Origin: Candidatus Bathyarchaeota archaeon
Lineage (GTDB): Archaea > Thermoproteota > Bathyarchaeia > Bathyarchaeales > Bathycorpusculaceae
Assembly (NCBI GenBank): GCA_963707955.1
Contig: OY970176.1
Location: 2,240,001 to 2,304,000, forward strand
Direction of reading: 5' to 3'
DNA length: 64,000 nt
How positions within the stretch are numbered: the first letter of the stretch is position 1; every line of letters starts with the position of its first letter. This document shows positions 18,270 through 59,662 of this stretch, in pieces. A model generated the notes under the pieces. The model was not told where the DNA came from and did not search any database. It saw only the letters and a list, made by a program, of their open reading frames with translations. A program made the translations under genes and the position numbers.

Positions 18270-18399
18270 TTTTGTTTGGGTTTGAGCTGGGATAAAACTT
18301 TACCCTTTTTCTCTCTCCTGCTAACTCTCTCGCTCACTCTCTCTAAAAAAACAAACAAATAAAAAACACACACACGCAGACAACAAACAAAAACACACA
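18270..18399 (+). repeat. Box + G-poor tract element, copy 1
   Basis: GGATAAAACTTTACCC at 18290-18305 followed by CT-rich then CA-rich tract; fused directly to truncated cas1. Confidence 0.85.
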
Positions 18400-19360
18400 G
18401 AAGTCAGAGACAAAAACGGGCAGACTGAACGTTATCCGCATTTTGAGAAGGAAATAGGCGAAGCTGTCCTGAAGAGCGGAAGTTACGTTTCCGTTGACGC
18501 CCTAATTGACCTTGCACTCTGGAACATAGACACCTACATTATGACTAGGAAAAACAGAGTTGTAGCAGTTTTGAAGAACCTTGAAGATGACTCTCACGTT
18601 AAAACTAGGCTCTGTCAATATGAGGCTCTCAGCAACGGTAAAGGAATTGCTATAGCTAAACAGTTTTTAATCTCCAAGATTGAAGGTCAAAACTTCGTTT
18701 TTAAGAAATATGGTCTGAAACGTCTCAATGTTGATGCTAGGCATCAAATCGGTAATATTCAATTTGAAAGTCTAGAATCAGCTAGGAAAAAGCTTGTCTT
18801 AATTGAGAGCCATAATGCTAAGCTGTATTTCAACCAGATTTTCAACTTGTTTCCTGAAAAGATTAGACCTGAAAAGAGGACAGGCTATGCGGCGTAAGAT
18901 GGCTTGAACAACGTCTTTAATTTTGCGTATTATGTTTTGAAGTGCAGAGTTCATAAGACATTGTTGAAAGCTAAGCTTGAACCATACCTAGGATTCCTTC
19001 ACTCTGTTCAAGTTGGAAAGCCTAGTCTAGTATGCGACTTTCAAGAACTTTACCGCTACTTGATAGATGACTACCTGATAGAACGGTGTCAGAAATTGCG
19101 TAAGAAGGATTTTGTGCTTGTTACAGATTTTATGATGCGTCTCAAAATGGGAAAGAGGATTCACCTATGTGAATTTGAAACTAATGATTTAGCTGAAGGT
19201 TTGAATTTGCTTTTTGAACGGCATAGTTGAGATTCCAAGAATCAGGCATGGCAGTAGGCAGACTCTTGACACGTTGATTAATGAAGAGGCTTACTTGTTT
19301 GCAAAGTTTCTGAGACATGAACGGGAAACATGGGCTCCAAGAATAGCGAGCCTAGCCTGA
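18400..19360 (+). pseudogene. cas1: Solo CRISPR-associated endonuclease Cas1 (5'-truncated, TAA at 18895-18897, frameshift near 19222)
   Basis: VRDKNG.TERYP.FE.EIGE..LKSG, R..QY, IE...A..YF, N..FNFAY..L, L.PYLGFLH, SLVCDFQE.YR..IDD; no cas2 or array nearby. Confidence 0.9.
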
Positions 19361-19514
19361 TGGAAATAAGTAGTGATATCCCGATGTGGGACTTGGCGTG
19401 CGCTAATTTGTCAGAGTCCTCTGATCTGCGCTATTCTGTAAAGTCTGCTTGCTGGGAGTAAGAATACAAAGAGTTTTATCCTCATATCTTCAACTAAGTT
19501 GGCGGGATTGATAT

Positions 19515-20174
19515 TTGGAAAAACTTCAAACAGTAAGGCCTGAACGTACTGAAGAATTCAGGAAAAGATACCATGTGCTTCTTAACATCTCTGACGAGAA
19601 AATCAATGATATACTGAAACTGGTTGATTACGGACGACTTCTGCCTGATATCTGGAAAGATAAGCGAGAGGAGGAATTCAACCGGAAGATAGCTAAGATC
19701 TGTCAATTTGATGACCAAAAAGCAAGTTTGGTCATGTCATCGATAATTGGCATTTTGCGTAATGTGAAGAAAAAAGAGTTTGTTTTGAAAAGAGAATCAG
19801 ACCTGCTGAAATTGAAGTTTAACAAAACTGAGATTGAAAGATACGGAAAATTAGTGAACACATTGAGGAAAAAAGGGGGTCACGATGAAGTCAGAGAAGT
19901 CGATCAATGGCAATCTCTGACTGCGGAAGTCTTGCCATCTTTGGCTTCTATTGAATGCTCGTTTGACATACGGTGCGGAATCAAGAAAGACCAAGTATCG
20001 ACGTATATCCCTATTGTATTGTTAAAACTCAGAGCGACGAATGAAGGAGGGAAATCCTCAGAGTTTGTATTCCAAACTGACATTGGCACCCTAAGACGTA
20101 TAACTCGCGTTTTGACCGAAACATATAGAAACTCCAGTGTACTTAGGAAATATACACTCAAACGTGAGGACTGA
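19515..20174 (+). CDS. COMMD-like protein (helical N-domain plus C-terminal COMM-like domain)
   Basis: LPSLASIECSFDIR...PIVLLKL.......SEFVFQ.....L..I...L follows the COMM-domain pattern; ~220 aa as in COMMDs. Confidence 0.6.
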   Translation: MEKLQTVRPERTEEFRKRYHVLLNISDEKINDILKLVDYGRLLPDIWKDKREEEFNRKIAKICQFDDQKASLVMSSIIGILRNVKKKEFVLKRESDLLKLKFNKTEIERYGKLVNTLRKKGGHDEVREVDQWQSLTAEVLPSLASIECSFDIRCGIKKDQVSTYIPIVLLKLRATNEGGKSSEFVFQTDIGTLRRITRVLTETYRNSSVLRKYTLKRED

Positions 20175-20182
20175 AACTGACA

Positions 20183-20656
20183 ATGCGTCTCAGTCAACGT
20201 GTAGTACTTGAAGAACCGCAACCTGTCGCAGAGCATCAGAGATGTTTTCTAAGTGGAGATAGATACATCATGGATGCAGATCTCTTGGATAATTCCAAGC
20301 GTCGCGCGAGACTAAGACGCGTGCGTGAAGTATGGAAGCCAAATCATTGGTTCCCTGATGAAAGAATATACTTGGTGCATTCAGTCGCTCCAAACTTCTA
20401 TCGACGTGGCGATACGACATGGTCTATTGTTTTAGATGAAGAAAGCGAGACTGACTTAACTGAAACAATTCAAAAGAAGCTGAGAATCAGAAAGACAGAG
20501 GCAGCAGCAATAAAGGATAAACTTTACGAGGAAATTGACCAAATAGCTCAGGCTCGGAACGTTGAACGGTTTTCCTCAAACGAAAAAGACCAGCTAGTAT
20601 TAGCAATAATCAAGACCGCTGACAGTTTGTTGAAGAAGACACTTGATACAAAGTAG
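20183..20656 (+). CDS. Hypothetical protein
   Basis: 157-aa ORF, 8 bp from upstream and 14 bp from downstream gene. Confidence 0.7.
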   Translation: MRLSQRVVLEEPQPVAEHQRCFLSGDRYIMDADLLDNSKRRARLRRVREVWKPNHWFPDERIYLVHSVAPNFYRRGDTTWSIVLDEESETDLTETIQKKLRIRKTEAAAIKDKLYEEIDQIAQARNVERFSSNEKDQLVLAIIKTADSLLKKTLDTK

Positions 20657-20670
20657 TCGGAGGCTGGCAC

Positions 20671-21753
20671 TTGTCATCCTCGGAAGACAAGCAGTCATCC
20701 TTTGCCTATCTTCTCTTGTCATTCCTCGAAGGAAAATTGTTAGAGAAGAATATTGAGATTCCCAAATCTTCTCGTGACATTCTTAATGTAGCAGTGGATG
20801 AGGCTGTCAACCAATATGTCACTATGCATGGCAAAGATATGACGATTGAACCTTTGTCACTTTTTGAGACGGTTTTCATGCTAGGTTTGGAATTCCGCCG
20901 TAAAAATCCTCCAATCATTCTTGTTCGCACCTATCAAGTTGGTTTTGAATCAAAAAAGAAGTCTCCTTATTCAATTGTAGTAGTGCAACCACGTGTTCCT
21001 TCTCAGGATCAGTTTAGAGAAAAGGTTACCAATAATGGAAAACTTTGTATCATTAAAGAAGAAGCGGCTGAAGACATAATGCAGCAACTTTCAGAGATTG
21101 CTGAGAAGCTTGAAGAAAGAGTTGATTTTGTCTGTTTTCCTGAACTATCATTCTTTGATAAGAAAGAAACCTACGATGTTTTGAGCAAAATTGGAAAGGA
21201 AAAAGATTGTTTCATAATAGCAGGATCTTTTCACGATGAAAAGACAGAATCTAATATCTCTGTGATTTTTTCACCCCAAGGAAACTGGTTCAATCAGAGC
21301 AAAATCTTCAGATCCAAAAACGAAGGTATCAATGAGAAACCAATAGAATACTTGAACGAGTTTGATTTCCTTGAAGGAAGATTTTGTGTGTTGATTTGTA
21401 TCGATTCAGAAAGAGAGGATATCAGACAGATACTCAAAGAGAGACTGAAAGACCGCAAGTGCCCTGTGCTAGTCTTCAACCCATCACACACCGAACACCC
21501 AAAAAGGGCGACGGAGCTGCTAGCAAACAATCTCATGGTGCTGATTTCTGCGGCAATAGTTTTCTGTAATACTAACCAGAAAGGGGGTTCAACGGTACTT
21601 GTTCCTTTTGTTGAACTCAAAGATAGAAAATTCCGACTCTTCGAACTACCTCCTTCCGCCAAGACTGAGATTGGAAACGCCCAAGTTGATGTTAACCTCC
21701 TTATGGAAAATAGATTGTCAAAACAAAATGGTGTGGTTTCCATGACGAGATAA
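20671..21753 (+). CDS. Carbon-nitrogen hydrolase (nitrilase-fold) protein with N-terminal extension
   Basis: Catalytic triad motifs FVCFPEL, Q.K, VLICID; IIAGS; F.NT...GGS. Confidence 0.82.
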   Translation: MSSSEDKQSSFAYLLLSFLEGKLLEKNIEIPKSSRDILNVAVDEAVNQYVTMHGKDMTIEPLSLFETVFMLGLEFRRKNPPIILVRTYQVGFESKKKSPYSIVVVQPRVPSQDQFREKVTNNGKLCIIKEEAAEDIMQQLSEIAEKLEERVDFVCFPELSFFDKKETYDVLSKIGKEKDCFIIAGSFHDEKTESNISVIFSPQGNWFNQSKIFRSKNEGINEKPIEYLNEFDFLEGRFCVLICIDSEREDIRQILKERLKDRKCPVLVFNPSHTEHPKRATELLANNLMVLISAAIVFCNTNQKGGSTVLVPFVELKDRKFRLFELPPSAKTEIGNAQVDVNLLMENRLSKQNGVVSMTR

Positions 21754-21811
21754 GACTGCGAGCCGTCAAGGAAAGGATTTGCGCCCGCGCAAAATCACAG
21801 ACTGAACAGTG

Positions 21812-21940
21812 TTATGTGTTTTTCGTTTTATGCGTGTGTGTGTTTTTTATTTGTTTGTTTTTTTAGAGAGAGAGTGAGTGAGAGAGTTAGTAGGAGAGAG
21901 AGAAAAGGACAAAACTTTACCCCCCCACACACACAACAAC
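21812..21940 (-). repeat. Box + G-poor tract element, copy 2 (inverted, near-identical tract to copy 1)
   Basis: Reverse complement of ~21832-21908 matches ~18304-18378 with few differences; box GGACAAAACTTTACCC at 21907-21922. Confidence 0.88.
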
Positions 21941-21984
21941 TTTGGTTCGTGGCTTTTTGGGGTGCCTCGCTGGTCGCTCGGCAC

Positions 21985-22371: not shown

Positions 22372-22397
22372 GCACACGCCGATTACACTTCATACGC

Positions 22398-23411: not shown

Positions 23412-23452
23412 ATGTGGTGGTTGTTGGGGTAAAGTTTTACCCAAACCAAACC
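23412..23452 (+). repeat. Box element, copy 3 (short)
   Basis: tgtggtggttgttg GGGTAAAGTTTTACCC aaaccaaacc; box at 23427-23442. Confidence 0.75.
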
Positions 23453-23689
23453 TGACGACGATGTGCTACGTGGAAACAGAATGGCTTCTGAAAGGCAGTA
23501 TACACGATTCAGAGCATAGTGGTTGATCTCTGCAAAAGAGGCTATTACGGGAAATCAGATCATAATAGGGTAGGGATATAGGTAGTATCGGAATCGAGTA
23601 TACGGCCCCCTTTGCGCAGAAGGATTGCGAGAGATGTGTTTGTTCTTTCTGTTTCATAATAGAACAGATTGTTTTGATTGTTATCGAGA

Positions 23690-30522: not shown

Positions 30523-30693
30523 TAGCGCGCGCTAACTTTTCCGACACATCCAATGCTGGTTGGATAAAACTTTACACCTCAAACCCAAACCTAAACCCAA
30601 ACGTTTACTGACTAAACTTCTAACTTACCTATACTCTTACTCTCTTCACACATAATACAAGACATAATATACACATAAAACACGCGCGCGCTA
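30523..30693 (+). repeat. Box + G-poor tract element, copy 4, bounded by GC palindromes on both sides
   Basis: TAGCGCGCGCTA 30523-30534; box 30562-30577; nearly G-free tract; CGCGCGCGCTA ending 30693. Confidence 0.88.
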
Positions 30694-30720: not shown

Positions 30721-31668
30721 TTACAATCGATCTTCAGGAGGAGTCGGATTTGGGGATGCCCCGTTTAAATGAGGTAGGAGCGCCCTGTAAATTGTGGAAT
30801 TGATAGGGGTCTCCACCCCCTTCTCTCGACCCAATCGAACAATGGTGCCGATCAAAGCGTCAAGTTCCAGCCGATGACCCGCCATGAGGTCAACCTGCAT
30901 AGACGGCCTAGCCCACGTCGCATACCCCTCTAACATCTTCATAGTGTCATCAACGAATCTTTCAGGTATCGTGACTCCAGACGCCTTTGCCACAGCAACG
31001 TTCTCCTCCATCGTATCGCGTACCAATTGCCAAGAATCAGAGCAATCTCAGACAGGCCCTGCTGGGAGCCTAATCAATGAAAAGACCCCGTTGACCGCTG
31101 AGTTGGAGAGCATCTTCTCCCACAATGCCTGTCGGATATTTGGGTGAAGCTCGGCGGCGATATTAGCTTCTTTGAGAACCTTGGAGATCTCTTCTGTGCG
31201 CCTCGTCACGCCTCCTGCGAGTTCCCCGAATATTAGCCTCGTCGAACCTCCGTGTATGATAACGCCTGGTTTCTCGACTCTGGCGTTCACCCAGGAGACT
31301 CCTCCGAGGACATGCTCTAATCCAACTATATTCCCTATGTGGTCAGCGGCCTCTACGCCGTTCTGAACTGGGATTATGACGGTTCCTTCACTGATAAGTG
31401 GTGACATCTGCTGCGCGGCGGAGTCGAGGTCGTAGGTCTTCACGCAGAACATGATTAGGTCAACGGGGTCAACTTCGGCGGGCCTATCAGTTGCTTTCAC
31501 GGATAATTTGATGTCTCCGAGTGAGTTGGATTTGACGAATAGGCCATTAGCCCTCAGGGCATCCAGGGTTTGCCCCCTAGCGATTAGGGTTACATCGTTT
31601 CCAGCATTTGCGAGAAGCGCTCCGAAGAAGTCGCCTTCACCTCCAATCCCGACGACAGCTATTCTCAT
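30721..31668 (-). pseudogene. panE: 2-dehydropantoate 2-reductase with in-frame TGA at 31048-31050
   Basis: Rossmann start, CVKTYD, QNGVE, LWEK, then in frame SMQVD..AG..LELD...G. Confidence 0.88.
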
Positions 31669-31766: not shown

Positions 31767-31825
31767 TATGTGTCGGGATTAAATTTTACCCCCCAAACCC
31801 AACCCAAAAAACACACAAAACCCAT
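31767..31825 (+). repeat. Box element, copy 5 (short)
   Basis: GGATTAAATTTTACCC 31776-31791 followed by cccaaacccaacccaaaaaacacacaaaaccc. Confidence 0.7.
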
Positions 31826-31890
31826 GTGAGAAATGCAGAACTGTTATAACAAGAAAAAATAGGGATAGATAGTATGCTTCGAGTAGCGGG

Positions 31891-32340
31891 TTAGCTTGTT
31901 GTGATCGACCACTCGCATGGAATTTTTCCTGTTTTCGCCGTGGCTTTCCATCCCAACAGTTTTGCTGTGTCCACGACTGATGCAGCACAGAATTCGCACA
32001 GTGGTGTTCCAGGACCTCCAACGCCAATTTTTGATGCCCCACATGTGGTTGCTTGAAGAACAACCTTCCTAGGCGACTCTTCAAGAACTTTTATGTCGTT
32101 GCCTACGATCTGAAAGAATGTGCGAGCATAGTTCAGAGCCTTTAATGCTCCCTCTCCTGGCGTTTGTTTCCACACATCCGAGTTAACAGAATCCTTCGCG
32201 AAAGCAGCAAAGAATTTCTTAACCCCTTCGTCACCATAATTGCTTCTGATGAAGGCTATGGCACTTATCATTCCCACGTTGCCGAAAGACCTGGCGCCTG
32301 CAAGCTTCTCCTCTAAAGAAAGAGCTTTGCCCATATTCAT
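31891..32340 (-). CDS. V4R/ATC-hydrolase-like small protein
   Basis: V.EES...VVL..T.C, CEFC, G..PCEW.I pattern. Confidence 0.6.
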   Translation of the reverse strand: MNMGKALSLEEKLAGARSFGNVGMISAIAFIRSNYGDEGVKKFFAAFAKDSVNSDVWKQTPGEGALKALNYARTFFQIVGNDIKVLEESPRKVVLQATTCGASKIGVGGPGTPLCEFCAASVVDTAKLLGWKATAKTGKIPCEWSITTS

Positions 32341-32765
32341 CCCCTCACCCTCTACCATCTCTAGTTTCCACTTATAACATTTTGTATTCAACTAGAAGCA
32401 TTAGTTTGGTAGTAATTTGGCACAACAACTCTGGGAATCCAATTTTCCCTTTCATTTCTCAAATATTTGGCAAACAGTAAAGCCTCTTCATTGATCAGAG
32501 TTTCAATTTCCTGACGCTTACCCATCCTCACCCTTGAAACATCAACCTTGCTCTGGAAGAACGCGCGCTAAGCATTATTACACTAAAGGGATTTCCGCGT
32601 GTCCAAGGCACAAGTTCTACATTCGGACCATACATCGGGAGAAACCTCGCACTCTACATTTCGAAGAATACCCGAAAGCCGAGCTTGAAGAGAACAGCAG
32701 GTCTTCCACTGCGGAGTGGTACGGAAAGGATATAGCTGAACCATACGAGGTAGATTAGTGCAGGG

Positions 32766-40002: not shown

Positions 40003-40206
40003 GCTATTCCATTCGTTAGTTAGACTATATTTTACAATTATGAATTTGGAATAAGTATTGGTAGTATACCGCGCGCTAAAGCATTTACCTGACAAGCAAA
40101 TTCACGTTTTTGGGGTCGGGAGCACTTTGACCATGCACCTGATGTTTTATGCTGGTGCAGATTCGGTTGACAGTTCTGGTTGGAGAAGAAAAGCGGCGCG
40201 CGTTGG

Positions 40207-40659
40207 TTAGGGTTGCATTGTTCGGCGGGGCATGAATTGTTGTTGTTGTTGCATCGGGTCAGGAAACCTGGAGTAGTGTTCGTGGACCACTTTCCATCCT
40301 GAATCTTGTTTGTTGAGGACGGATGTGACGCGTGAAGTCACGTCGAATGTCCTGTTTCTCATCACTGCTCGATAATGTATGATGAATGTGGCGATCGCCG
40401 TGTTCCCGAGAATGTTGGCTTGAAAATCCCTCAACTCGTAAGTGTAGCTGGACATTACCTTGAACGCGTCGAACTCGTTCTCTAAGGCTTTCGAGCCTTC
40501 CTGCCTCTCATAGGGGGGCCAGTCGTCAAATTTGTTGTAGTGCTCATCAACGATTGCTTTGACCGCACCCTCGTCCTTGTTCTTCATGGCGTCGAGCCGA
40601 CTAACTATAACATTCCTTATTTCATCCTGCGCGGGTGATCCGACTGTAGTCTGTGCCAT
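40207..40659 (-). CDS. SnoaL/NTF2-like (DUF4440) protein
   Basis: G.TA.A.F...Y, R.T.V......WKVVHEH.S. Confidence 0.85.
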   Translation of the reverse strand: MAQTTVGSPAQDEIRNVIVSRLDAMKNKDEGAVKAIVDEHYNKFDDWPPYERQEGSKALENEFDAFKVMSSYTYELRDFQANILGNTAIATFIIHYRAVMRNRTFDVTSRVTSVLNKQDSGWKVVHEHYSRFPDPMQQQQQFMPRRTMQP

Positions 40660-41202
40660 TTTGACACCTCACCTTAAGGCGCTTGTTCTTCTCTCTTCAA
40701 AACGCGCTAGCATCTTATGTTTCTTTCTCAAGCGCGCGCCCTTTTCTTCACTTTGCATTTCTAGCATAAACGGTAGTGCGCGCGCTTCTCTAAGAATCAA
40801 CGTACAGTGGCATTTGCACTTCTCCACTGCCAAGCACGTACTCTCCATTTATCCCTTCCACTCCACTCACTAACATCAAAGTTCCTTGTGCACAAGTCTA
40901 CCTCACCCCGTCTGTAAGTCCTAGACGGTCTCAATATATAAGAGCTATAGTGAGCGCGCGCGGTTGTCTAATGTGGTTTTTACCCTTTCATCTTAAACAT
41001 TCTTGTCCTGGAAATGGAAACACGAAATGGGGTACTGTTTAAGACGACAATTGCTACTTAATCTCGACCGCTTCGCGCGCTGGGAGACCCAAACAACTTC
41101 AGGTTCGAATCCAATTAATTTCGCTGGGTTCCAGCTAAGGCATTCTGATTTGATGGACAAAATGGAAATTGCTAATACTGGCAGCCTGAATTGTCACGCG
41201 GG

Positions 41203-44305: not shown

Positions 44306-44406
44306 TCAGACATGGCAGTAGGCAGACTCTTGACACGTTGATTAGTGAAGAGGCTTACTTGCTTGCAAAGTTTCTGAGGCATGAACGGGAAACATGGGTT
44401 CCAAGA
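44306..44406 (+). pseudogene. cas1: cas1 3'-end fragment, copy 2
   Basis: Near-identical to ~19242-19342 (RHGSRQTLDTLI.EEAYL.AKFLRHERETW.PR). Confidence 0.92.
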
Positions 44407-44646
44407 GAAGAGAGCGCACGCGACGTCAAAGAAGTGAAAGAAATACTTGATGGAAAACGAGATTACGCACTGAATTATGAACCTCCAATAGACGTGAACC
44501 TGAATGAAAAGAAAGAACAGCAGAAAAAACGTGTTTGGACAATTGACTTAGACACTCTTACAGGTCACAGAGCGCGCGACATACTTGCGGATTTCCTTTC
44601 TTTTTCGAAATAGCTTGACTTGCACATGTCACAGACCTTCTTAGAT

Positions 44647-45466: not shown

Positions 45467-45632
45467 TAGCGCGCCGGCTAACTTTTCCGACATATCCAAT
45501 GTTGGTTGGTTTGGATAAGACTTTACCCTTTTTCTCTCTCCTACTCTACCTTCCTCTCTACCTCTCTTATTCTACTCCTCTTCTCACAAAACTGCACAAT
45601 AAACTATAACTCACACACAAAGAGCGCGCGCC
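45467..45632 (+). repeat. Box + G-poor tract element, copy 6
   Basis: First ~60 nt nearly identical to copy 4; box 45513-45528; tract with a single G over ~95 nt; ends in AGCGCGCGC. Confidence 0.88.
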
Positions 45633-45737: not shown

Positions 45738-48700
45738 TTGTCTAGGAAGACTGTTTCTGCAATAATGCTATTTTTGTTGGTGATAAGCACATTAACATTG
45801 GCATTTAAGATTCAATCAGTCAAAGCAGACGATGGAACTGTCTACGTTAATGCTGACGGAAGCATAAGCCCGATCAGCGGCAATGTTGTCACAAATGTCA
45901 CTTCGTTCGAGGCCATTAGATGGCAGGAAAAAACGTTCTTCGCTGCTGGAAGGTACTGGCTTTTTTATGTTGACGGAGGTTACCCCACAGAGAGCTCCTT
46001 GCCGAGCTCCACGATGTATTATACGACAAGCACGGATGGAGTTTCTTGGACCCCTCCGACCGCACTTGCATCTGGTCTCAGTGAAAACTCTGGAGAAAAC
46101 GTACAGGCATTTCTAAGCAATAGTGGATATCTCCAAGTTTTTTATAGGATTAATAATGAGCTTTTCTACCGCATGGGGAGTCCCAACTCAGACGGTTCAA
46201 TAACGTGGGCGACACCTAGCTGGCAACTCGTCTTCAATGCTAATGCAGCAGAAGGAGAAGCAAGCGGTACGTGTGACTTTTTCGCAATAGTCGACTCTAA
46301 CAATTATCCTTGGGTTTCTTGGGGGTACGTCCAAGAGCCGATACAGTTGCTCAATCCTTCAGACACTAAAATGTACGTTTGGAAAGACGCGTTTAACAAT
46401 GGCACGTGGCAGACTGCCTCAGGCTTTCCCTATAACGTAGGCACTGGCAACTATACAAACGACTTGATGATTCCGCTTTCGAACGGTCAAAATTACGTAA
46501 TGTACTTTCTTGATAATCCCCCCTTAAGCGGTCAGATCTATGGTGAACTGTGGAACGGCACTGCGTGGGGGCCTCAGGAAACATGCACAACCAGTCAGGT
46601 GAATGAGCAATACGTTTGGGGACAGGAATCCTGGGACAGAACTGCAGTTGCGGATTCAAACGATAACATATACCTGGCTTTTTTGTCCACAACACTGAAC
46701 TTGGTTTTTGTCGAGCGCACGATGAGCGGTGGATGGACTAGCGAAACAATCGTGCAAGGTGGCTGTGGCATTTATTCGTCTCCTTCATTCAACTTATACG
46801 ACGACAACCTGCGACTGTTTTGGATTAACAGTTCCACCTCAATATGCTACAAGAAATACGTTGGCGGCGTATGGGATACTGACCCGACTTTGATAGTGAA
46901 TGAAACAAACTCTCAGATTGCAGTCGGCACCTCCGTCGACGGCACGGATGATGGACGTTTAAACGCTTTCACAATGTCTCTTGATGGTAGCATTGGCTTG
47001 TTGTGGGTAAACAATCAAACAGTGACGAACACTGGTCAAATAATGTTCGGGCTTCAACCGCAGACAGCACTGACATTCTCAAACATCGGTTTAAGCAGCA
47101 CAGTAGCAAATTCGACTTGCACGTTCAGCTGTTGTTGGACCGACACGCAAGGACTTGGTGCGTTCATTTTCTCGACAAACAATACCGGCAACTGGCAGAA
47201 CGACTCCACGGTGAGTCTCAGTGGCACTGTCGCGTGGACAAACGTGACGAAGACTTTGAACCCCATAGTGGGCACGGTCGTCGGTTACGAATGGTTCGCA
47301 AACGACACGAATGGCAACTGGGCATCGACAGGAATTCAAACATTAACAACACACGCGCCCGCTGGTTATATCTCGACCGAACCCATTTACATACAGGCCG
47401 ACGGAAGCATACAACCGTCAACAGCGCCGATTTCCAGCGTTGACAACGTGACCTACACGTTAACAAACGATATCACGGCAAACGTCACAGCCAGTTCCAG
47501 CGCAATCATCATACAAAGAGACAACATCACAATAGACGGAGCAGGCCACACGCTGCAAGACTCAGGAGCTTCAGACTCCGAAGGAATAGATTTGACAGGA
47601 AGAAGCAACGTAACAATCAAAAACATGCAAATCACAGCATTCTATTATGGCATCGATCTCAATTCTTCTTCTAACAACAGCGTGAGCGGAAACAACATAA
47701 CAAGCAACAGCTGGGCTGGCATCTGGCTCGATTCTTCTTCTGATAATAATAGCGTGAGCGGAAACTCGTTTGTTAATTGCGGCTTACTTGTGTTTGATTC
47801 CTATGGGAATGTGGTGACTGATAACTTGGTGAACGGTAAACCCTTGGTCTATCTTGAAGATGTGTCAGACTATGCGGTTGGGGACGCTGGGCAAGTCATA
47901 CTCGTCAACTGTAACAACGTAACCGTGGAAAACCTCAACCTATACAACACTAACACAGGCGTTGAACTATGGGAAACAAACAACACCACAATCTCAGATA
48001 ACGACATAACAGCAAACACCAACGACGGTATCTCGTTCTATTCTTCTGCTAATAATAACGTGAGCGGAAACAACGTAACAAACGACGGTGCTGGCGTCGA
48101 TTTCGATTCTTCTTCTGCTAATAATAGTGTGAGCGGAAACAACATAACAAACGACGGCTATGGCATCATGCTCTTTTCTTCTGCTAATAATAGCGTGAGC
48201 GGAAACAACATAACGAACAACGGCTATGGCATCATGCTCTTTTCTTCTGATAATGATAATAGCGTGAGCGGAAACAACATAACGAACAACAGCTGGGCTG
48301 GCATCTATCTCCTTTCTTCTGCTAATAATAGTGTGAGCGGAAACAACATAACGAACAACGGCTATGGCATGATGCTCTTTTCTTCTGCTAATAATGGCGT
48401 GAGCGGAAACAACATAACAAGGAACAGCTGGGCTGGCGTCTATATCGATTATTCTGATAATAATAGTGTGAGCGGAAACAACATAACAAACAACAGGGTT
48501 GGCATTGAGATAGATTCTTCCTCTAAGAATACAGTCTACCATAACAACTTCATAAACAACACCGGCCAAGTTTATTCTTCTGGCTCGACTAGTGTTTGGG
48601 ATGTTGGCTATCCCATTTGTGGAAACTACTGGAGCGACTACAACGGCACAGACTTGTACAGCGGGCAATATCAGAATGTGACTGGAAGCGACGGCATAGG

Positions 48701-49136
48701 CGACACACCATACGTTATTGACGCCAATAACACGGATTTTTACCCTCTGATGGGAGGATTCTCAGACTTCAATGTTGTACAAGGCGTTGATGTTCAGGTT
48801 GTGAGCAACTCCACGGTTTCTGATTTTCAGTTCAACGGAACCGCTATACTCTTCAACGTTTCAGGTACGAATGGGACAACGGGCTTCTGCAACGTGTGCA
48901 TACCAACAGCCCTGTTAAACGGCACTCTCAGCGTGTTCGTTAATGGGACGCAGGTTCAATACAACCTCTTGCCCGTCTCAAACAGCAGTATCAGCTACCT
49001 GTACTTCACCTACGGCCACTCAGCAGAACAGGTCATAATAATGCCCGAGTTTCCTGAGCCTCTCATCCTAGCAATGTCCATGTTAGCGACACTGTTGACA
49101 ATTGCAATCTACAAGAAAAAACATAGCCGTTCTTAG
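45738..49136 (+). CDS. Secreted NosD/right-handed beta-helix repeat surface protein with PEF-CTERM-like anchor
   Basis: Signal peptide, PbH1 repeats (NNSVSGNNIT), GNYWSDY.G.D...DGIGDTPY, C-terminal PEFP + TM + basic tail. Confidence 0.92.
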   Translation: MSRKTVSAIMLFLLVISTLTLAFKIQSVKADDGTVYVNADGSISPISGNVVTNVTSFEAIRWQEKTFFAAGRYWLFYVDGGYPTESSLPSSTMYYTTSTDGVSWTPPTALASGLSENSGENVQAFLSNSGYLQVFYRINNELFYRMGSPNSDGSITWATPSWQLVFNANAAEGEASGTCDFFAIVDSNNYPWVSWGYVQEPIQLLNPSDTKMYVWKDAFNNGTWQTASGFPYNVGTGNYTNDLMIPLSNGQNYVMYFLDNPPLSGQIYGELWNGTAWGPQETCTTSQVNEQYVWGQESWDRTAVADSNDNIYLAFLSTTLNLVFVERTMSGGWTSETIVQGGCGIYSSPSFNLYDDNLRLFWINSSTSICYKKYVGGVWDTDPTLIVNETNSQIAVGTSVDGTDDGRLNAFTMSLDGSIGLLWVNNQTVTNTGQIMFGLQPQTALTFSNIGLSSTVANSTCTFSCCWTDTQGLGAFIFSTNNTGNWQNDSTVSLSGTVAWTNVTKTLNPIVGTVVGYEWFANDTNGNWASTGIQTLTTHAPAGYISTEPIYIQADGSIQPSTAPISSVDNVTYTLTNDITANVTASSSAIIIQRDNITIDGAGHTLQDSGASDSEGIDLTGRSNVTIKNMQITAFYYGIDLNSSSNNSVSGNNITSNSWAGIWLDSSSDNNSVSGNSFVNCGLLVFDSYGNVVTDNLVNGKPLVYLEDVSDYAVGDAGQVILVNCNNVTVENLNLYNTNTGVELWETNNTTISDNDITANTNDGISFYSSANNNVSGNNVTNDGAGVDFDSSSANNSVSGNNITNDGYGIMLFSSANNSVSGNNITNNGYGIMLFSSDNDNSVSGNNITNNSWAGIYLLSSANNSVSGNNITNNGYGMMLFSSANNGVSGNNITRNSWAGVYIDYSDNNSVSGNNITNNRVGIEIDSSSKNTVYHNNFINNTGQVYSSGSTSVWDVGYPICGNYWSDYNGTDLYSGQYQNVTGSDGIGDTPYVIDANNTDFYPLMGGFSDFNVVQGVDVQVVSNSTVSDFQFNGTAILFNVSGTNGTTGFCNVCIPTALLNGTLSVFVNGTQVQYNLLPVSNSSISYLYFTYGHSAEQVIIMPEFPEPLILAMSMLATLLTIAIYKKKHSRS
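47660..48500 (+). repeat. Coding tandem repeats (~66-69 bp units) of the beta-helix
   Basis: Recurrent gtgagcggaaacaacataac units in frame. Confidence 0.85.
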
Positions 49137-49325
49137 CGTCCGCTTTCTGTCTGTGACTGTCTGTCAGTTTGCGTGTGTTTTTTTTGTTTGTTTGTGTCAA
49201 GGTGTAGAAAGTAAGAGAGATAATTAATAGTAAGTAGAATAGTAGAAGGAAGAAGAAGAAAAAGGCTAACTTTAACCCAAGCCAACCAACAAGACTGAAC
49301 AAACAGAAAAGTATAGACCGCGCTA
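49134..49325 (-). repeat. Box + G-poor tract element, copy 7
   Basis: Degenerate box 49264-49278; tract runs toward and ends on the TAG stop of the NosD gene; CCGCGCTA at 49318-49325. Confidence 0.78.
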
Positions 49326-49326
49326 G

Positions 49327-50927: not shown

Positions 50928-51246
50928 AACGCACACGCATCTGCATTTCCACGAAGTTAGGGCATGTGACAGACTTGACCCCCTCTTCCAAGCGCATTTC
51001 GCACGCGCGACTTAGACCCGAATGGGTTTGAGTCCACTGCTTTAAAAATCCTGTAACCAGCATTCTCTTTGTTCAGGCCAACTGGTTCAGAGCTACTCGA
51101 CCCCATACCCAAAAGGGTTCAGGTCCTAGCATGCGCGGCGCAGTGCCCAAACCAAGAACGCAGCACGTGCTATATGTCGGTTGGCTATTTGTTTCGTTCG
51201 AGAAGTCTTATAAGGACAGATATTGGATATTCAAAAGCCAAGGAGC

Positions 51247-53583: not shown

Positions 53584-53723
53584 TTGGGGTAAAGTTTTAT
53601 CTTTCTCTCTCTCAATTTCTTACGCACACGACGACGCTCTAATTCTAACGCGCTAACTCTCCCCTACTCACTCACTCTCTCTACACACACGCACACACAC
53701 AGAGACAGACAAAGCACGCGCTA
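53581..53723 (+). repeat. Box + G-poor tract element, copy 8
   Basis: GGGTAAAGTTTTATCT 53587-53602; CT then CA tract; ends GCACGCGCTA on the stop of the second NosD gene. Confidence 0.85.
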
Positions 53724-55487
53724 GGAACGGTTATGCTTTTTCTTGTGGATTGCTATTGCTGACAGTGTCGCTAACATGGACATTGCTAATATGAGAAAAT
53801 CAGGAAACTCGGGCATTATTGTAATCTGTTCTGCTGAGTGGCCGTAGGTGAAGTACAGGCAGGTGTTACTGCTGTTTGAGACGGGCAAGAGGCTGTATTG
53901 AACCTGCGTCCCATTAACGAACACGCTGAGAGTGCCGTTTAACATCGCTGTTGGTATGCACACGTTGCAGAAGCCCGTCGTACCGTTCACGCCTGAAACG
54001 TTGAAGAGTATAGCGGTTCCGTTGAACTGAAAATCAGAAACCGTGGAGTTGCTCACAACCTGAACATCAACGCCTTGTACAACATTGAAGTCTGAGAATC
54101 CTCCCATCAGAGGGTAAAAATCCGTGTTATTGGCGTCAATAACGTATGGTGTGTCGCCTATGCCGTCGCTTCCAGTCACATTCTGATATTGCCCGCTGTA
54201 CAGGTCCGTACGGTTGTAGTCGCTCCAATAGTTGCCGCCTGAAGGATAGTCGTTGTCCCAAGTGTTGCCGATGGATGTGCTGTCGACTAAAGTCTGGGCA
54301 CCGTTCCCAATGAAATTGTTATGGTATATCGTGTTGTTTGAGGAAGAATTGTCGAGCCAAATGCCACTACCATAACTATTTGCTGTGACGTTGTTGCCAG
54401 ATAGAACATTGCCAGAAGAATTGTCGAGCCAAATGCCAGCATAGTAGTTTGCTGTGACGTTGTTGCCAGACAGAATATCGCCAGGAGAAGAGTAGAGATA
54501 AATGCCATACCAGCCGTTAGCTGTGAGGTTGTTGCCGATGATTTTTGAATCAGTCGTGTTTGCCAGCGTGAGTCCCCCATAATTTCTCGTGAGAGCCAAG
54601 CCTTGCACTGTCACGTTCTTGCAGTTGACGAGGCACACGTACCCAACGCCCTCGGGATAAGTCTGGGGGCTTATCACGATGTTCGACTTGTTCATCAGGT
54701 AGTACACGGGCTTACCCTCCACGAGGTTTGAAGTGTCAACATGATTCACAAAATCGCTCAAAACACTGCCAGAGGCGCTGCCAGAGACGCCAAAGTTGTA
54801 GGTGTTATCTGCTATCACGTTGTCAGACAGAACATTGCCAGAAGAAGCGCGGAGATAAATGCCATAGATGTTTGCTGTGGCGGTGTTGCCTGACACGGTA
54901 TTGTTATCAGAAGAAGAAAAGAGCTCAATACCATCAAAGACGTTTGCTGTACTGTTGTTGCCTGACACGGTATTGTTATCAGAAGAAGAGCCGAGGTTAA
55001 TTCCAAAGCCGTTTGCTCTGACGTTGTTTCCGCTTATGCTGCTGCTGTTAGAATATTCGAGATCGATGCCACCCCCGCTGTTTGCTGTGACGTTGTTGCC
55101 GCTAACAGTGTTGTTTGAAGAAGAGTAGAGATAGATCCCTTCTTGGAAGTTTTCGATGTTGGCGTTTTCGATCGTCACGTTGCTTATGTCCGTCAGGCTT
55201 AGACCATATCCGCTTAGGTTTCCTTGTACAGTGTAGCCGTTTCCGTCGATTACGGTGTTGTTTCTTTCGACGACGATTCCGTTGTAAGCTGGGTAGCTGA
55301 CGTTGCCAGTTAGCGTGTACGTGACGTTGTTAACGCTTGAAATAGGTGCGGAAGACGGAGAAACGCTTCCGTCACTGTTAATATAAACGGTTTCATTTGG
55401 TGCATGGACAAGCCCAATGTTAAACGCCAAGGCGAACGTGCCTGCAAGAAGCAACGACAAAATCATCAAAGAAACAATTCTCCTCAT
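53721..55487 (-). CDS. Secreted NosD/beta-helix repeat surface protein with PEF-CTERM-like anchor (paralogue of 45738)
   Basis: Signal peptide, PbH1 repeats, YPSGGNYWSDY, C-terminus nearly identical to the 45738 gene. Confidence 0.92.
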   Translation of the reverse strand: MRRIVSLMILSLLLAGTFALAFNIGLVHAPNETVYINSDGSVSPSSAPISSVNNVTYTLTGNVSYPAYNGIVVERNNTVIDGNGYTVQGNLSGYGLSLTDISNVTIENANIENFQEGIYLYSSSNNTVSGNNVTANSGGGIDLEYSNSSSISGNNVRANGFGINLGSSSDNNTVSGNNSTANVFDGIELFSSSDNNTVSGNTATANIYGIYLRASSGNVLSDNVIADNTYNFGVSGSASGSVLSDFVNHVDTSNLVEGKPVYYLMNKSNIVISPQTYPEGVGYVCLVNCKNVTVQGLALTRNYGGLTLANTTDSKIIGNNLTANGWYGIYLYSSPGDILSGNNVTANYYAGIWLDNSSGNVLSGNNVTANSYGSGIWLDNSSSNNTIYHNNFIGNGAQTLVDSTSIGNTWDNDYPSGGNYWSDYNRTDLYSGQYQNVTGSDGIGDTPYVIDANNTDFYPLMGGFSDFNVVQGVDVQVVSNSTVSDFQFNGTAILFNVSGVNGTTGFCNVCIPTAMLNGTLSVFVNGTQVQYSLLPVSNSSNTCLYFTYGHSAEQITIMPEFPDFLILAMSMLATLSAIAIHKKKHNRS

Positions 55488-55577
55488 TCTACTCTCCCTG
55501 CCCACTACAAACATAGCCCTAATTAACTTTTAAGTTTATCTAAGCAACAACCAGAAGATTCCTAGACGGCTCGCTCA

Positions 55578-55707
55578 TTAGGCTAGGCTCGCTATTCTTG
55601 GAATCCATGTTTCTCGTTCATTCCTCAGAAACTTCGCAAGCAAATAAGCTTCTTCATTAATCAACGTGTCAAGGGTCTATTTACTGCCATGTCTGATTCT
55701 TGGAATC
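55578..55707 (-). pseudogene. cas1: cas1 3'-end fragment, copy 3
   Basis: Reverse complement reads IPRIRHGSK*TLDTLINEEAYLLAKFLRNERETWIPRIASLA-stop, matching 19231-19360. Confidence 0.92.
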
Positions 55708-57111: not shown

Positions 57112-57432
57112 ATGGAACGTAGAGCCAACCCATGGGAAATATTCAACGAGGAAAGGCCTGAGGTTGTGAAAGCTTTCCAAGAAATGATGAAGCGCGTTAA
57201 CAAAAACAATGTCCTTGACAAAAAGACGATGGCACTAATCTATGTTGGCATCTGCTCTACGATACGAGAAGCAGGCGCGCTGCGTCATTTCGTCGGTGAG
57301 GCATTAACAGCTGGAGCAACGAAGGAAGAAGTAGAAGCAGCGGCCTTACTTGCTTTCACTACAGGGGTTTCCTCCGCAGAACTAAGCCTACCTATAATCC
57401 TCGATCTCGCCAGGAAAACTAAACAAAAATAG
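57112..57432 (+). CDS. Carboxymuconolactone decarboxylase/AhpD-family protein
   Basis: LD.KT..LI.VG, H...AL.AGATKEE. Confidence 0.85.
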   Translation: MERRANPWEIFNEERPEVVKAFQEMMKRVNKNNVLDKKTMALIYVGICSTIREAGALRHFVGEALTAGATKEEVEAAALLAFTTGVSSAELSLPIILDLARKTKQK

Positions 57433-57563
57433 CGCTACATCGCGTTGAGAGGTCGCAATTGTGTCATAATGGCTGCCAATTCTGCCTCTAAGAAGAGCGA
57501 GCGCTATTGTGCAGCGCGCGCTATCGTAACATGTAAATCTGTCTCCTCACAGCAAATCCTTAA

Positions 57564-58463
57564 TTGTGTATGCGACCAAGAGCGTCGTTGCCGAACTGGG
57601 AGAGGCGCAAGGGATTGATTAAGCGAGTTAGTATCGTTCTTGCGAATTATTGTCCGCACTGTGTACCGTTTTCTCTGCGTAATGCTAACAAAATGTCCAG
57701 AGACCTTGGGGTTCCGCTTCTTACTCTTGACATAGAGATCCCCGAGCAGCTTGAGGCGGCTGACAGGCTCGTCGAAGAACACGGCGATTGGTCGGAGGAT
57801 TATCTTATCCCTCAAGTCTTTGTTGAACACATGGACGGGAGAGTTAATCACGTATTAACTGGTTTTTCAGAGGCAGTTTCGGTGACAGAACGTTCTTGGA
57901 AAGCGCTGTTTTCGAGTAGTTACTATCAAAGTCTCGTACATGGAGAACCGGCTATCTCGTTGCCTCACTCATCATCCCGTCGTAAGTCGTTGAAGGAGTT
58001 TGTGGAGGCATACCTAACGTTCGATGGACAATGTTACAGGCACTGCGATAGCCCTTCCTCCTTCGTAGATCTGCGATCCGACTCGGATAATGTCATCGGA
58101 GCATACGTCTGCCCCGGCGGATACGTGTCTAGGGTTGTCTACTTCAGTGTTTACCCAGATGTCAAGCAATTAAGAAGCTTCCTTATCTCCCAAGTCGGTA
58201 AGGAAATTGTTAACGATCGCGATATCCGTCCAGCCACTAGGCACGGGTGGGAATTGGGAGGTGATGCTTTGGCTGAGATTGGTGAAGTGAGCCCCACCGG
58301 TGTCATAAAGGAGATCTATTGGACAGTCTATGCCAAAACCGAAGACGAGAGAAGACGTGGAGTTTTTATCTGCTCACATCCTAGGAAAGGAATGGGATGT
58401 AACAGACTATTCGTTCAAGACAAGAAGTCAAGAAACAGATTGTGCCCAAAGTGTAAACAGTGA
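57564..58463 (+). CDS. Thioredoxin-like (CPHC) protein with Cys-rich C-terminal region (start probably ~57615)
   Basis: YCPHCVP, DYLIPQVF; C-terminal C..GC...CPKC. Confidence 0.7.
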   Translation: MCMRPRASLPNWERRKGLIKRVSIVLANYCPHCVPFSLRNANKMSRDLGVPLLTLDIEIPEQLEAADRLVEEHGDWSEDYLIPQVFVEHMDGRVNHVLTGFSEAVSVTERSWKALFSSSYYQSLVHGEPAISLPHSSSRRKSLKEFVEAYLTFDGQCYRHCDSPSSFVDLRSDSDNVIGAYVCPGGYVSRVVYFSVYPDVKQLRSFLISQVGKEIVNDRDIRPATRHGWELGGDALAEIGEVSPTGVIKEIYWTVYAKTEDERRRGVFICSHPRKGMGCNRLFVQDKKSRNRLCPKCKQ

Positions 58464-58640
58464 AGCGCGCGCTAAGGCTTTCTCTAATTTGGTGACTAGA
58501 GATAATGGCTTTTGAAAAAGCCGTTTTCCCTATTCCACACCCAACAGGTTTCTAAGCGAAATCCACACTTTAAGGCTTGCCCAGTAACCGCGAGTTAGAA
58601 GATTCTTCTCAATCACCAGCGCGCGCTCCAAGATGATGAC

Positions 58641-59447
58641 CTACTTGATTTTCTCTGCAACTTTTGACTTGATGTATCTTGAACGATACCAATATAGAGC
58701 CGACACGAATGTTAGTGCTAGGATGCATACTGAAAGAATTTGGTAAACAAGAGGAAAAAGAACGATGGAAGGCAAAAGGGTCAAAAGCAAAATACCAATC
58801 AATGTCGGAATGACTGTCTTAAGTTTGCGATTTGTAAGCAGATAATATCCGACAGTCACTAGAAACAGAATGGGTATGGAAACAAGCAATCCCTTAAAAA
58901 GACCAATAAATAACAACACGAATGGAAAGAGCGTAAAAAACAAGACTACGCCAGTAGCGAAAAGCAAGCTACCAACTATTTTTTGGAGAAGAGATGGTTT
59001 GCCCAAATATTCCTGAGTTGGTTTTGGACGTGAAGCCCGTTGTGGCTCAGTTTTCTCTTGCTTCTGTTCAATGCCTTCAATGCGTGCTGTTTGTTGGGGT
59101 TTATGCTTCTGGTAGTATCTCCTGTAGGAAAGAAGGATAATTGAAACCACCAATGACCAAAGAAGAAACTGCGATTCATCGGGAAGCTGGATGAGGAAGA
59201 TTAGACTCGAAGGAACCACAAGCAAAGAACCGCCCAGTAGTGCTATCACAGAACGTCTAAATCCTAAATCGACCAGAAGAAAGCAAGCCTCTCCAAGAAT
59301 AAGAGCAACCAACCAACCGAACATCAAGGCTCAGAGCAAACCGAATCGAAAGACAAACGGGATGCCTAACAAGAGAAGCAAAAATCCCAAAATTATGAGC
59401 AATAGCCCAGTTGTTCTCTTGAGCATCGGCAAGCGATTTCTCCGCAT
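58641..59447 (-). pseudogene. Multi-pass membrane protein with in-frame TGA at 59331-59333
   Basis: Frame extends upstream through TGA to ATG 59447 with another TM helix; two similar hydrophobic halves. Confidence 0.65.
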
Positions 59448-59522
59448 GCTACGTTCTCCTAACCCACGATTAGTTCTATCCGTTAAGTTGCACTATAACT
59501 TTTCTGCACAATAAGAAATACT

Positions 59523-59662
59523 CCGCGTGTCTGTCTGCCTGTCTATTTGTGTGATGTATGTGTGTGATATCTCTGTGTGAGATATGTAAGTAGCTAAGAG
59601 AAAGAAAGAAGAAGAGAGAGAAGGTGTGTGTGTGTTTGGGGGTAAAGTTTAATCCCACACAC
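59523..59662 (-). repeat. Box + G-poor tract element, copy 9
   Basis: Box GGGTAAAGTTTAATCC 59640-59655 inside a GTGTG../..CACAC hairpin; tract ends at CACGCGG. Confidence 0.82.

Follow-up and report, generated by a model that had tools for sequence, protein, structure and literature searches.

Bathyarchaeia are among the most abundant uncultured archaea of sediments, peat and wetlands, and we know of no account of how their flexible genome is constructed. Among the closest described systems, dif and pdif are numerous short dyad sites with two unlike half-sites that flank gene modules and are served in trans by a host recombinase; the Xer/dif site has two 11-bp arms and a 6-bp spacer and is bound by XerA, and pdif sites have no GT/CA arms or tracts. 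Repetitive extragenic palindromic (REP) sequences and bacterial interspersed mosaic elements (BIMEs), with their REP-associated tyrosine transposases (RAYTs), and the palindrome-associated transposable elements (PATEs) and miniature inverted-repeat transposable elements (MITEs) of the IS200/IS605 insertion sequences, are dispersed intergenic near-palindromes that occur in mosaics, frequently at points of rearrangement. At human palindromic AT-rich repeats (PATRRs), rearrangements end at the centre of dispersed palindromes. Casposons have an intact casposase (Cas1) and a family B polymerase (polB) between terminal inverted repeats, with a duplication of 14–15 bp. Here we analyse a 64,000-nucleotide stretch of a Candidatus Bathyarchaeota archaeon (the window, positions 2,240,001–2,304,000 of the 2,346,764-bp contig OY970176.1, assembly GCA_963707955.1, which also carries an archaeal 16S gene), in which a dispersed 16-bp quasi-palindrome, the box, is accompanied by low-complexity flanks (short arms or longer tracts) and a GC motif, forming a genus-specific composite element that stands at the borders of accessory-gene modules. 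The archaeal integrons of Ghaly et al. (2022) have canonical attC sites, according to the available portion of that report (PMC9668308), and closed Bathy-6 genomes contain large genomic islands, according to the available portion of another (PMC11697101).

The preliminary description of the window listed the quasi-palindrome at nine positions, all of which were recovered. Eight match GGRTAAANNTTTAYCC with at most one mismatch (18290, 21907, 23427, 30562, 31776, 45513, 53587 and 59640), whereas 100 dinucleotide-preserving shuffles averaged 0.07 matches and never gave more than one. The ninth, at 49264, is the degenerate GGCTAACTTTAACCC, 15 nt long with an indel, which falls outside the GGRTAAANNTTTAYCC pattern and was read by eye. 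Inspection of the window copies also bore out the statement that the AC/GT centre can face either way with respect to the tract. The boxes other than those at 30562 and 45513, which are given with their modules further below, are as follows.

18290..18305, plus strand: box, GGATAAAACTTTACCC, A orientation, exact pattern match
21907..21922, plus strand: box, GGACAAAACTTTACCC, A orientation, pattern match
23427..23442, plus strand: box, GGGTAAAGTTTTACCC, no tract, flanked by short GT/CA arms, pattern match
31776..31791, plus strand: box, GGATTAAATTTTACCC, with a CCCAAA arm, pattern match
49264..49278, plus strand: degenerate box, GGCTAACTTTAACCC, found by inspection
53587..53602, plus strand: box, GGGTAAAGTTTTATCT, B orientation, pattern match
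59640..59655, plus strand: box, GGGTAAAGTTTAATCC, B orientation, pattern match

Over the whole genome the stricter pattern GGRTAAARYTTTAYCC gave 13 exact matches, 29 at up to one mismatch and 41 at up to two, compared with 0, 1 and 8 for the reversed pattern used as a control, and all 13 exact copies were intergenic on a crude map of longest open reading frames (ORFs). Statistics were based on a curated set of 36 genome boxes, derived from 33 initial pattern matches by dropping two that lie inside long ORFs and lack arms (1794830 and 1990136) and adding five copies with arms or tracts, namely four with two mismatches and the indel copy at 49264. Nine of the 36 fall in the window, which makes up 2.7% of the genome. 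Across all the DNA compared, from several species, 68 of 110 distinct arm-bearing boxes are exactly GGATAAAACTTTACCC, and nearly all of the 110 combine one GGATAAAA half with one GGGTAAAG half, perfect dyads being rare. On the sequences compared, the 16-mer is a fixed asymmetric word conserved across species. When the 36 boxes of this genome were folded with 20-nt flanks, a centred hairpin with at least 10 pairs was obtained in just eight (median z −0.7), and it is therefore sequence, not structure, that is conserved. An extended hairpin or cruciform was rejected as the conserved feature.

The exact box pattern occurs in nine of 10 other genomes of the genus (1–25 copies), in two of eight genomes of other genera of the family (1–2 copies) and is absent from all 12 genomes that represent other families of the order. 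A wider scan for the box plus a CCCAAA arm, with one genome per GTDB species, returned at least 122 loci; among the matches listed, 113 of the 122 lie in Candidatus Bathyarchaeia/Bathyarchaeota metagenome-assembled genomes and nine in unrelated organisms. The GC motif has the same phyletic range as the box: AGCGCGCGCT is present in all 10 other genomes of the genus (7–114 copies) and 114 times in this genome, and is found at 0–1 copy in 20 genomes of other genera. Genome-wide, GCGCGCGC has 464 copies, where base composition predicts about 25, and 374 intergenic runs of at least 8 nt, distributed evenly over all intergenic types, give the consensus TAGCGCGCGCTA; within the window, 75 copies of GCGCGC were counted where 9.5 are expected. 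The co-occurrence of this genus-specific motif points to a modular organisation that extends far outside the 36 boxes. Examples of the motif in the window stand at 14127–14132, 40196–40201, 40732–40739, 57514–57521 and 58465–58472, and the 11-nt GCGCGCACTAG occupies the position in this genome at which a relative, G001, has a 3.7-kb insert.

Comparison with G001 and a further genome, G007, located the ends of homology. Contig C28 of G001 corresponds to positions 1665822–1671058 of this genome up to and including the box, continues with 9.2 kb of other DNA and resumes at a second box with positions 1263795–1263382, and homology between the two genomes stops at the boxes at 1671031, 1263779 and 683905. 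Among 25 judgeable G001 boxes none was spanned by homology, 10 having homology on one side and 15 on neither, compared with 77 box-free intergenic gaps of the same loci, of which 13 were spanned and 7 more had homology on both sides. The large inversion between 1263779 and 1671031 that contig C28 suggested was unconfirmed at the reciprocal junction.

The hot spot at the box at 2144299, which lies between two convergent core genes, gave the clearest view of such a border. At this place G001 and G002 are empty, having 90 nt and 77 nt, respectively, with neither box nor GC motif, and this genome has 250 nt, the box, an arm, one ORF and a GC9 run. The 250 nt and the box are common to this genome and G007 at 89% identity, and the content differs from the box onwards: past the box, G007 has a tract, module 1, GC8, a tract, a degenerate box, an arm and module 2, followed by GC8, a tract, a box, an arm and module 3. 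The hot spot diverges at the box, and each G007 module is closed by GC8, tract and box. As a separate observation, the 3.2-kb island at the G007 hot spot (L240, G007:C3:61400–66900) is flanked by a 13-nt direct repeat, GCGAAATCCGCGA (at 1325 and 4498), in which the left core gene's 3' end recurs in the manner of an attachment-site (att) duplication; the island contains no integrase.

Ends of homology fall at boxes and GC motifs in the window as well. The panE module is 94% alike in G007, and the likeness ends exactly at the GC8 located 3' of panE; past this GC8, the present genome has a tract and a box, and in G007 a different gene precedes a tract and box of its own. In the opposite direction from panE the likeness runs through the box and ends 16 nt beyond it, within the CCCAAA arm, and the tract is not shared. 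The box at 31776 is the left edge of a 98% duplicate (31775–32483 versus genome 2033861–2034574). Other paralogous modules of this genome end at GC motifs (57512–58458 versus 999121–1000073, and 5753–6567 versus 886244–887062), and the same comparison placed one GC motif at a break inside a cas1 remnant. One module bounded by GC motifs is the only part of its neighbourhood that this genome shares with G001 and G007:

40196..40739, no strand assigned: GC-bounded gene module with a SnoaL-like gene, GCGCGC at 40196–40201 and 40732–40739

These observations agree with the link to recombination and variable DNA drawn in the preliminary description, since boxes lie only in variable DNA and at ends of homology. 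In this genome panE is split into two ORFs (30721–31026 and 31048–31668) that correspond to a single 315-aa ORF in G007 (L037, 10251–11198), and is probably a pseudogene, judging by this comparison.

Analysis of the flanks revealed a polarity. On the strand leaving the box, a G-poor stretch of at least 20 nt was found on 44 of the 72 sides of the 36 boxes, compared with 14.8% of a random intergenic control; for at least 60 nt the counts were 11 of 72 versus 0.5%, and for at least 90 nt 8 of 72 versus 0.04%. The opposite polarity occurred on two of the 72 sides, and among 112 boxes of other species the side that had not been selected was G-poor in 50 cases and C-poor in 10. The commonest flank is the short arm, with the top strand reading (TTTGGG)n or (TTGG)n, the box, and (CCCAAA)n, (CCAA)n or (CA)n. 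Long tracts are a minority form, and six of the genome's eight longest lie inside the window, where seven boxes carry a tract of about 100 nt, as first described, and the two at 23427 and 31776 have short C/A arms alone. Six of the seven tracts measure 97–110 nt at the strict limit of no more than 2 G per 20 nt, counted on the strand leaving the box (18290, right, 101 nt; 21907, left, 108; 30562, right, 110; 45513, right, 97; 49264, left, 102; 59640, left, 101), and the right tract of 53587 measures 30 nt at that limit and 115 nt at 4 G per 20. Leaving the box, the tracts run from T5 through a CT-rich to a CA/GACA-rich part; the tract of 45513 is composed of A26 C37 G5 T33 over 101 nt. Their outer ends coincide with an exact GCGCGCGC at two boxes (30684–30691 for 30562 and 45624–45631 for 45513) and with a degenerate GC motif at four (53587, 21907, 49264 and 59640); the tract of 18290 has no GC motif at its end and abuts a 5'-truncated cas1 gene. 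The tracts and box modules of the window are listed below.

18306..18417, plus strand: G-poor tract of family 1, with T5, a CT-rich part, A7CAAACAAAT and a CA-rich part, leading into the 5'-truncated cas1 pseudogene
21791..21906, minus strand: G-poor tract of family 1, inverted copy of 18306–18397, 83% over 125 nt including the box
30525..30691, plus strand: box module of GC8, a 29-nt arm, box 30562–30577, tract 30578–30683 and GC8, between an HNH gene and panE
45469..45631, plus strand: box module of GC6, an arm homologous to the arm at 30525, box 45513–45528, tract 45529–45623 and GC8
49148..49263, minus strand: G-poor tract of family 2, directly 3' of the NosD-like gene 45738–49136
53603..53717, plus strand: G-poor tract of family 3, directly 3' of the NosD-like gene 53721–55514 (minus strand)
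59532..59639, minus strand: G-poor tract of family 4, from length measurement and family comparison

At least four tract sequence families are common to several species, which share them at about 75–90% identity. Family 1, with the core CTCACTCACTCTCTCTAAAAAAACAAACAAATAAAAAACACACACACGCA, includes the tracts of 18290 and 21907 (18276–18397 versus 21936–21815, 83% alike over 125 nt), two copies in G007 and one in G001; family 2 includes 49264, this genome's 2033104 and copies in G007 and G010; family 3 includes 53587, this genome's 84830 and a copy in G001; and family 4 includes 59640 and a copy in G001. The view that tract sequence is mostly unconserved therefore stands inside the window and fails outside it, where homologues of each type occur elsewhere in the genome and in other species, and the suggestion that tracts arise by untemplated synthesis is largely contradicted by the conservation of tract families between species. 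The two modules at 30525–30691 and 45469–45631 are GC-bounded on both sides and have homologous short arms, and a two-armed copy in G007 has arms of 113 nt and 78 nt. G007 also contains a second three-letter tract type, in which (GACG)n is mirrored by (CGTC)n around a mini-segment.

Support for the tracts was sought in contigs of three runs from one study that may include the source sample. The boxes and tracts of 45513 and 59640 were bridged by these contigs with zero differences, the box and tract of 53587 were bridged by one X1 contig only (record 4), and the tract of 49264 was covered in part, record 4 of X1 beginning inside it; the expectation that sequence data would support the tracts was thus borne out for the first two and less completely for the others. 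One X3 contig has small indels inside the tract of 49264, and slippage therefore probably shapes the tracts. One X4 contig has different DNA up to 8 nt left of the box at 53587. A joint in X4, 53601-CAA-49282 (depth 2.8), is explained equally by a circle or other module order and by a split alignment on the repeated box, and was not used.

Other sequence features adjoin the flanks. Promoter-like GCGGAAAAGTTATAGCTGAAC lies 3' of tracts in several species (window 59420–59460 on the minus strand, L170, L197 and L038), a placement which suggests that tracts may lie upstream of promoters rather than within transcripts. Beside the box at 23427 stands a conserved non-coding element (23443..23640, plus strand; GGCAGTATACACGGTTCAG ... 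ATCGGAATCGAGTATACGCC), about 115 nt of which directly adjoins the box in eight genomes or records. Its other copies include 394056–394220 of this genome and L049, L073, L006, L087, L008, L037 and L010; two invariant blocks with GTATAC can pair (GGCAGTATACACGGTTC with GGAATCGAGTATACGCC), and a small ORF over 23443–23640 is not conserved. Rfam gave no match at gathering score in the window and, beside this box, one miRNA match at chance level only. The 3' parts of the two convergent NosD-like genes form a 92% inverted repeat of 558 nt (48621–49178 versus 53685–54236), which extends into the starts of the tracts of 49264 and 53587; minus the intervening 4.3 kb, both genes, the tracts and a box would make one large palindrome.

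Boxes occupy all types of intergenic gap, 13 of the 36 being in divergent, 15 in tandem and eight in convergent gaps (background 26%, 55% and 19%), and lie 37 to 1210 nt from the nearest gene starts. The 6-mers enriched upstream of genes in this genome (TTAAAT, TTATAT and TAAATA) are unlike the box, whose 8-mers are rare upstream of genes. An archaeal promoter, with B recognition element and TATA box, was rejected on the grounds that the box is unlike the genome's TATA type and that its start distances vary so widely. An intrinsic terminator was rejected as well, given the distribution over gap types and the presence of T5 in the tract type only, on either strand.

The genes beside boxes are diverse. 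In the window they are of defence and accessory type and include a pPIWI-associated nuclease, DUF559, PLD, SIR2, HD, QueC-like, HNH and AAC(3) genes and two NosD-like surface proteins. At every locus with sufficient flanking sequence, the proteins within 1.2 kb of boxes were compared; they number 284 distinct ones, no family exceeds three members, and therefore no gene travels with the box. A physical link of boxes to a recombinase, an integrase or an intact cas1 was not found. PF01797 (Y1 transposase) had no match in the genome and PF07282 (TnpB) one, below the cut-off, and IS200/IS605 parentage was rejected for want of both. The genome contains no CRISPR array, a k-mer scan giving coding tandem repeats only.

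B boxes predominate in the part of the genome that extends from 2.293 Mb across 0 to 0.70 Mb (eight B and one A, with two B at 2.29 Mb in addition), and A boxes between 0.79 and 2.29 Mb (23 A versus three B), with one switch of orientation inside the window, between 49264 and 53587. With clusters as units this bias by chromosome arm was not significant by our own estimate, and the GC skew of the genome gave no origin or terminus for a test of polarity. Two further repeats were noted: a separate repeat of about 200 nt, at 75–88% identity, in about 25 places of this genome and at L038 2079–2282, and a repeat of about 115 nt at 51009–51126 with four further copies at genome 2304312–2314834, just past the right end of the window.

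A scan of IMG/VR for the 16-mer returned 33 stretches, about as many as expected by chance; about ten of the listed stretches have arms, several of them overlapping on the same contig. The fullest record, G044, is a tailed provirus with the box in flanking host DNA, between Shedu-like and TIR-domain defence genes, and a role of the box as a viral att site was rejected. In this genome, a region at ~2055000–2077000 resembles two tailed-virus records of IMG/VR at 68–73%, with terminase, portal, capsid and tail tube, and is a probable provirus, 1.6 kb from the box at 2053417.

The association of boxes with cas1 suggested in the preliminary description was confirmed as a matter of position. A tblastn search with intact solo Cas1 proteins of G001 gave 11 fragments in this genome, of which 10 are 3' parts of differing length, mostly with the same 3' boundary, and eight lie within 2.5 kb of a box, compared with 5.9% of random points. 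They include the R1 repeat (19231, 32430, 44306 and 55576), which is the last ~130 nt of solo cas1. The remnants are as follows.

18379..19362, plus strand: solo-type cas1 pseudogene with one internal TAA and the N-terminus missing, including the repeated 3' end R1 at 19231–19362
19231–19362, 32430–32506 (minus strand), 44306–44415 and 55576–55707 (minus strand): cas1 fragments of the window, by tblastn
77172, 80699, 206076, 227787, 393360, 862558 and 2026624: cas1 fragments elsewhere in the genome, by tblastn

The tract of the box at 18290 replaces the 5' end of the pseudogene. No intact cas1 was found in this genome, the four Pfam matches all being fragments or broken. In G001 two solo cas1 genes are intact and have no cas2; one of them lies inside the box-bounded 9.2-kb segment. 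The other lies 5 kb from a fusellovirus VP2-like gene (L034, G001:C30, 4955–5341) and, on this neighbourhood, may be part of an integrated element of spindle-virus type. Genera that lack the box also have similar Cas1 genes with low scores. The link between cas1 and the box is real in space, and any link in function is putative.

The reading that we favour, tentatively and at somewhat less than an even chance, is that accessory-gene modules are bordered by a composite element, specific to one Bathyarchaeia genus and its close relatives, of which the box forms the conserved core and serves as a protein-bound exchange site. The full unit consists of a TAGCGCGCGCTA-type GC motif, an arm or tract, GGATAAAACTTTACCC, a second arm or tract and a second GC motif, and such units separate accessory-gene modules in flexible parts of the genome, for example defence islands and integration hot spots. 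The 16-mer would be a sequence-specific site for a protein or protein pair, with two unlike half-sites, GGATAAAA and GGGTAAAG; we propose a protein site because the sequence is conserved and the fold is not, and because the half-sites are unlike. A trans-acting enzyme would join, exchange or insert segments at the box, in the manner of attC/IntI or dif/Xer modules, and this enzyme would be encoded elsewhere because the cargo is unrelated and no enzyme is linked. The tracts would be slippage-prone, fast-evolving inherited spacers that are carried along, neither made de novo nor serving as transcribed leaders, and fast evolution by slippage would explain tract families with indels. Several points weigh against this reading. 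Of 82 ends of homology blocks, 27 have a (GC)3+ run within 15 nt in either of the two genomes (as do 6.5% of intergenic positions) and only four a box, and the GC motif rather than the box may therefore be the main joint; homology also stops at places with neither. Nine tyrosine recombinases (PF00589) are encoded in the genome, none of them beside the boxes of the window or other box clusters, no gene family recurs adjoining boxes, and the orientation of boxes is mixed within arrays, unlike a simple polar array. A clear excision circle or box-to-box junction was not found in the population contigs described above. The compared loci were chosen around boxes and over-sample variable DNA, genes were placed on a crude longest-ORF map, and G001, at ~95% identity in shared DNA, was the sole relative close enough for fine mapping. 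Finally, a repeat that propagates itself would account just as well for the conservation of tract families and for two-armed copies. That the whole amounts to a previously unknown trans-acting system for the capture and shuffling of gene modules, with TAGCGCGCGCTA at the module ends, the box with its polar, telomere-like flanks as docking or exchange site and the decayed solo cas1 genes as relics of a former integrase, we regard as rather unlikely.

In the main rival explanation, possible though on balance doubtful, the unit of GC motif, tract, box, tract and GC motif is a small non-autonomous mobile or foldback repeat, of MITE or BIME type, that spreads itself, and breakpoints at boxes arise secondarily, when copies recombine with each other or the palindrome breaks at its centre. 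Such a repeat would account for tract subfamilies that are conserved across species beside unrelated genes, for the discrete GC-bounded units of ~165 nt at 30525–30691 and 45469–45631 with their homologous arms, for the two-armed G007 copy (113 + 78 nt) and for the complementary composition of an AG-rich left arm and a CT-rich right arm. However, the one close genome pair yielded neither an insertion polymorphism of the element alone (0 of 25 G001 boxes had collinear homology on both sides) nor an empty GC site matching a filled one, and the observed differences always include genes. GC motifs flank some units, but terminal inverted repeats or target duplications were not recognised, and most copies form poor hairpins in a genome that lacks a Y1 transposase or TnpB. 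The box could instead be an architectural or regulatory protein site (an insulator, a silencer of acquired genes, or a partition or domain-boundary site) that travels with accessory DNA, the flanks acting as non-B-DNA spacers. Its conserved 16-bp near-dyad form, its strictly intergenic position, its slight excess between divergent genes (13 of 36 versus 26%), the promoter-like GCGGAAAAGTTATAGCTGAAC 3' of several tracts and the orientation bias by chromosome arm would all suit this idea, which is nonetheless improbable: the spacing to gene starts is not fixed, the box is not of the TTAAAT/TTATAT TATA type and is absent from conserved core regions, the bias loses significance with clusters as units, and homology ending at the box edge is left unexplained.

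Integration by a Cas1 of casposon or CRISPR type, in which the box would be the target of solo Cas1 and be duplicated on insertion of DNA, the tracts being the ends of the insert, appears very improbable. It would explain the proximity of 8 of 11 solo-type cas1 fragments to boxes in a genome without a CRISPR array and the intact solo cas1 within the 9.2-kb segment of G001, and boxes are direct repeats in all three window segments with inward tracts and in one G007 module. The chance probability of four direct pairs in four is, however, ~0.06; paired boxes differ by one to several bases, all cas1 genes of this genome are broken, most box-bounded segments contain no cas1, polB was not seen in the annotated loci, and the low-scoring Cas1 genes of box-free genera are similar. 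Least credible, and barely so, is the production of tracts de novo at box joints, by untemplated or reiterative synthesis or by telomere-like healing of ends. The mirror-symmetric polarity, with the C-poor strand always running 5' to 3' towards the box, the telomere-like arms (TTTGGG)n and (TTGG)n, the panE copies without a common tract and the second tract type (GACG)n in G007 would be expected of such a process, but the cross-species families at ~75–90% identity and the duplication of tracts within the genome together with non-repetitive stretches would not.

The element described here points to an undescribed way of shuffling accessory genes in these genomes. With a conserved border element, accessory modules and defence islands could be recognised by a simple sequence marker, and recurrent assembly breaks and rearrangements would be explained; if the enzyme were found, it would represent a new archaeal site-specific DNA-joining system. 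The 16-mer was not found in the literature searched, which held no work joining GCGCGCGC, archaea and an intergenic location, and no such repeats were found in literature on Bathyarchaeia integrons or attC sites, mobile elements, palindromes, intergenic repeats and genomic islands. The main text of the Bathy-6 study contains neither "repeat" nor "palindrom" (PMC11697101; its Supplementary Text S6, outside this scope, could bear on the point), and the available portion of a Bathyarchaeia virus survey does not describe the element (PMC10541130). The initial impression that this is not a described element accordingly holds for the literature searched, and the element is best filed among short dispersed repeats bordering gene cassettes.

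Comparison of the element with known systems revealed partial likeness to each. As with integron attC sites, going by the available portion of the report on archaeal integrons, short imperfect palindromes separate diverse accessory genes in arrays of flexible regions, length and inner sequence vary between conserved ends, and the enzyme acts in trans, as proposed for the box (PMC9668308). In contrast to attC, the box and its flanks contain no GTTRRRY core or folded R''-L''/L'-R' structure, a fixed 16-mer is conserved rather than a fold, and the flanks are polar and of low complexity. No PF00589 gene and no IntI stands beside box arrays, and, unlike integron cassettes, the genes lie on both strands in segments of 1.2–14 kb, often with several genes per module. 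Like dif and pdif, box copies with two unlike half-sites flank discrete gene modules; unlike dif, the box is of 8+8 bp with no evident 11-6-11 layout and has GT/CA arms and tracts. With REP sequences and BIMEs it shares the form of a dispersed intergenic near-palindrome combined in mosaics with other short motifs, often at points of rearrangement, and it differs from them in that the genome has no Y1 or TnpB, most boxes fold poorly and boxes are confined to variable DNA. An association with Cas1 and direct repeats of ~15–16 bp at some segments recall casposons and CRISPR adaptation, as the available portion of the casposon report presents them, although this genome has no intact casposase (Cas1) and polB was not seen in annotated loci (PMC4046053). 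Low-complexity DNA adjoins the box repeat as it does in a CRISPR leader, but there is no regular array with spacers of 25–50 nt, and the "spacers" are gene modules of kilobases. Rearrangement ends at dispersed palindromes are common to the box and to PATRRs, but the palindrome of the box is weak as well as short, and species have its exact sequence in common. In sum, three features set the element apart as unusual: a fixed asymmetric core, mirror-polar low-complexity flanks and a partner GC motif of equal phyletic range.

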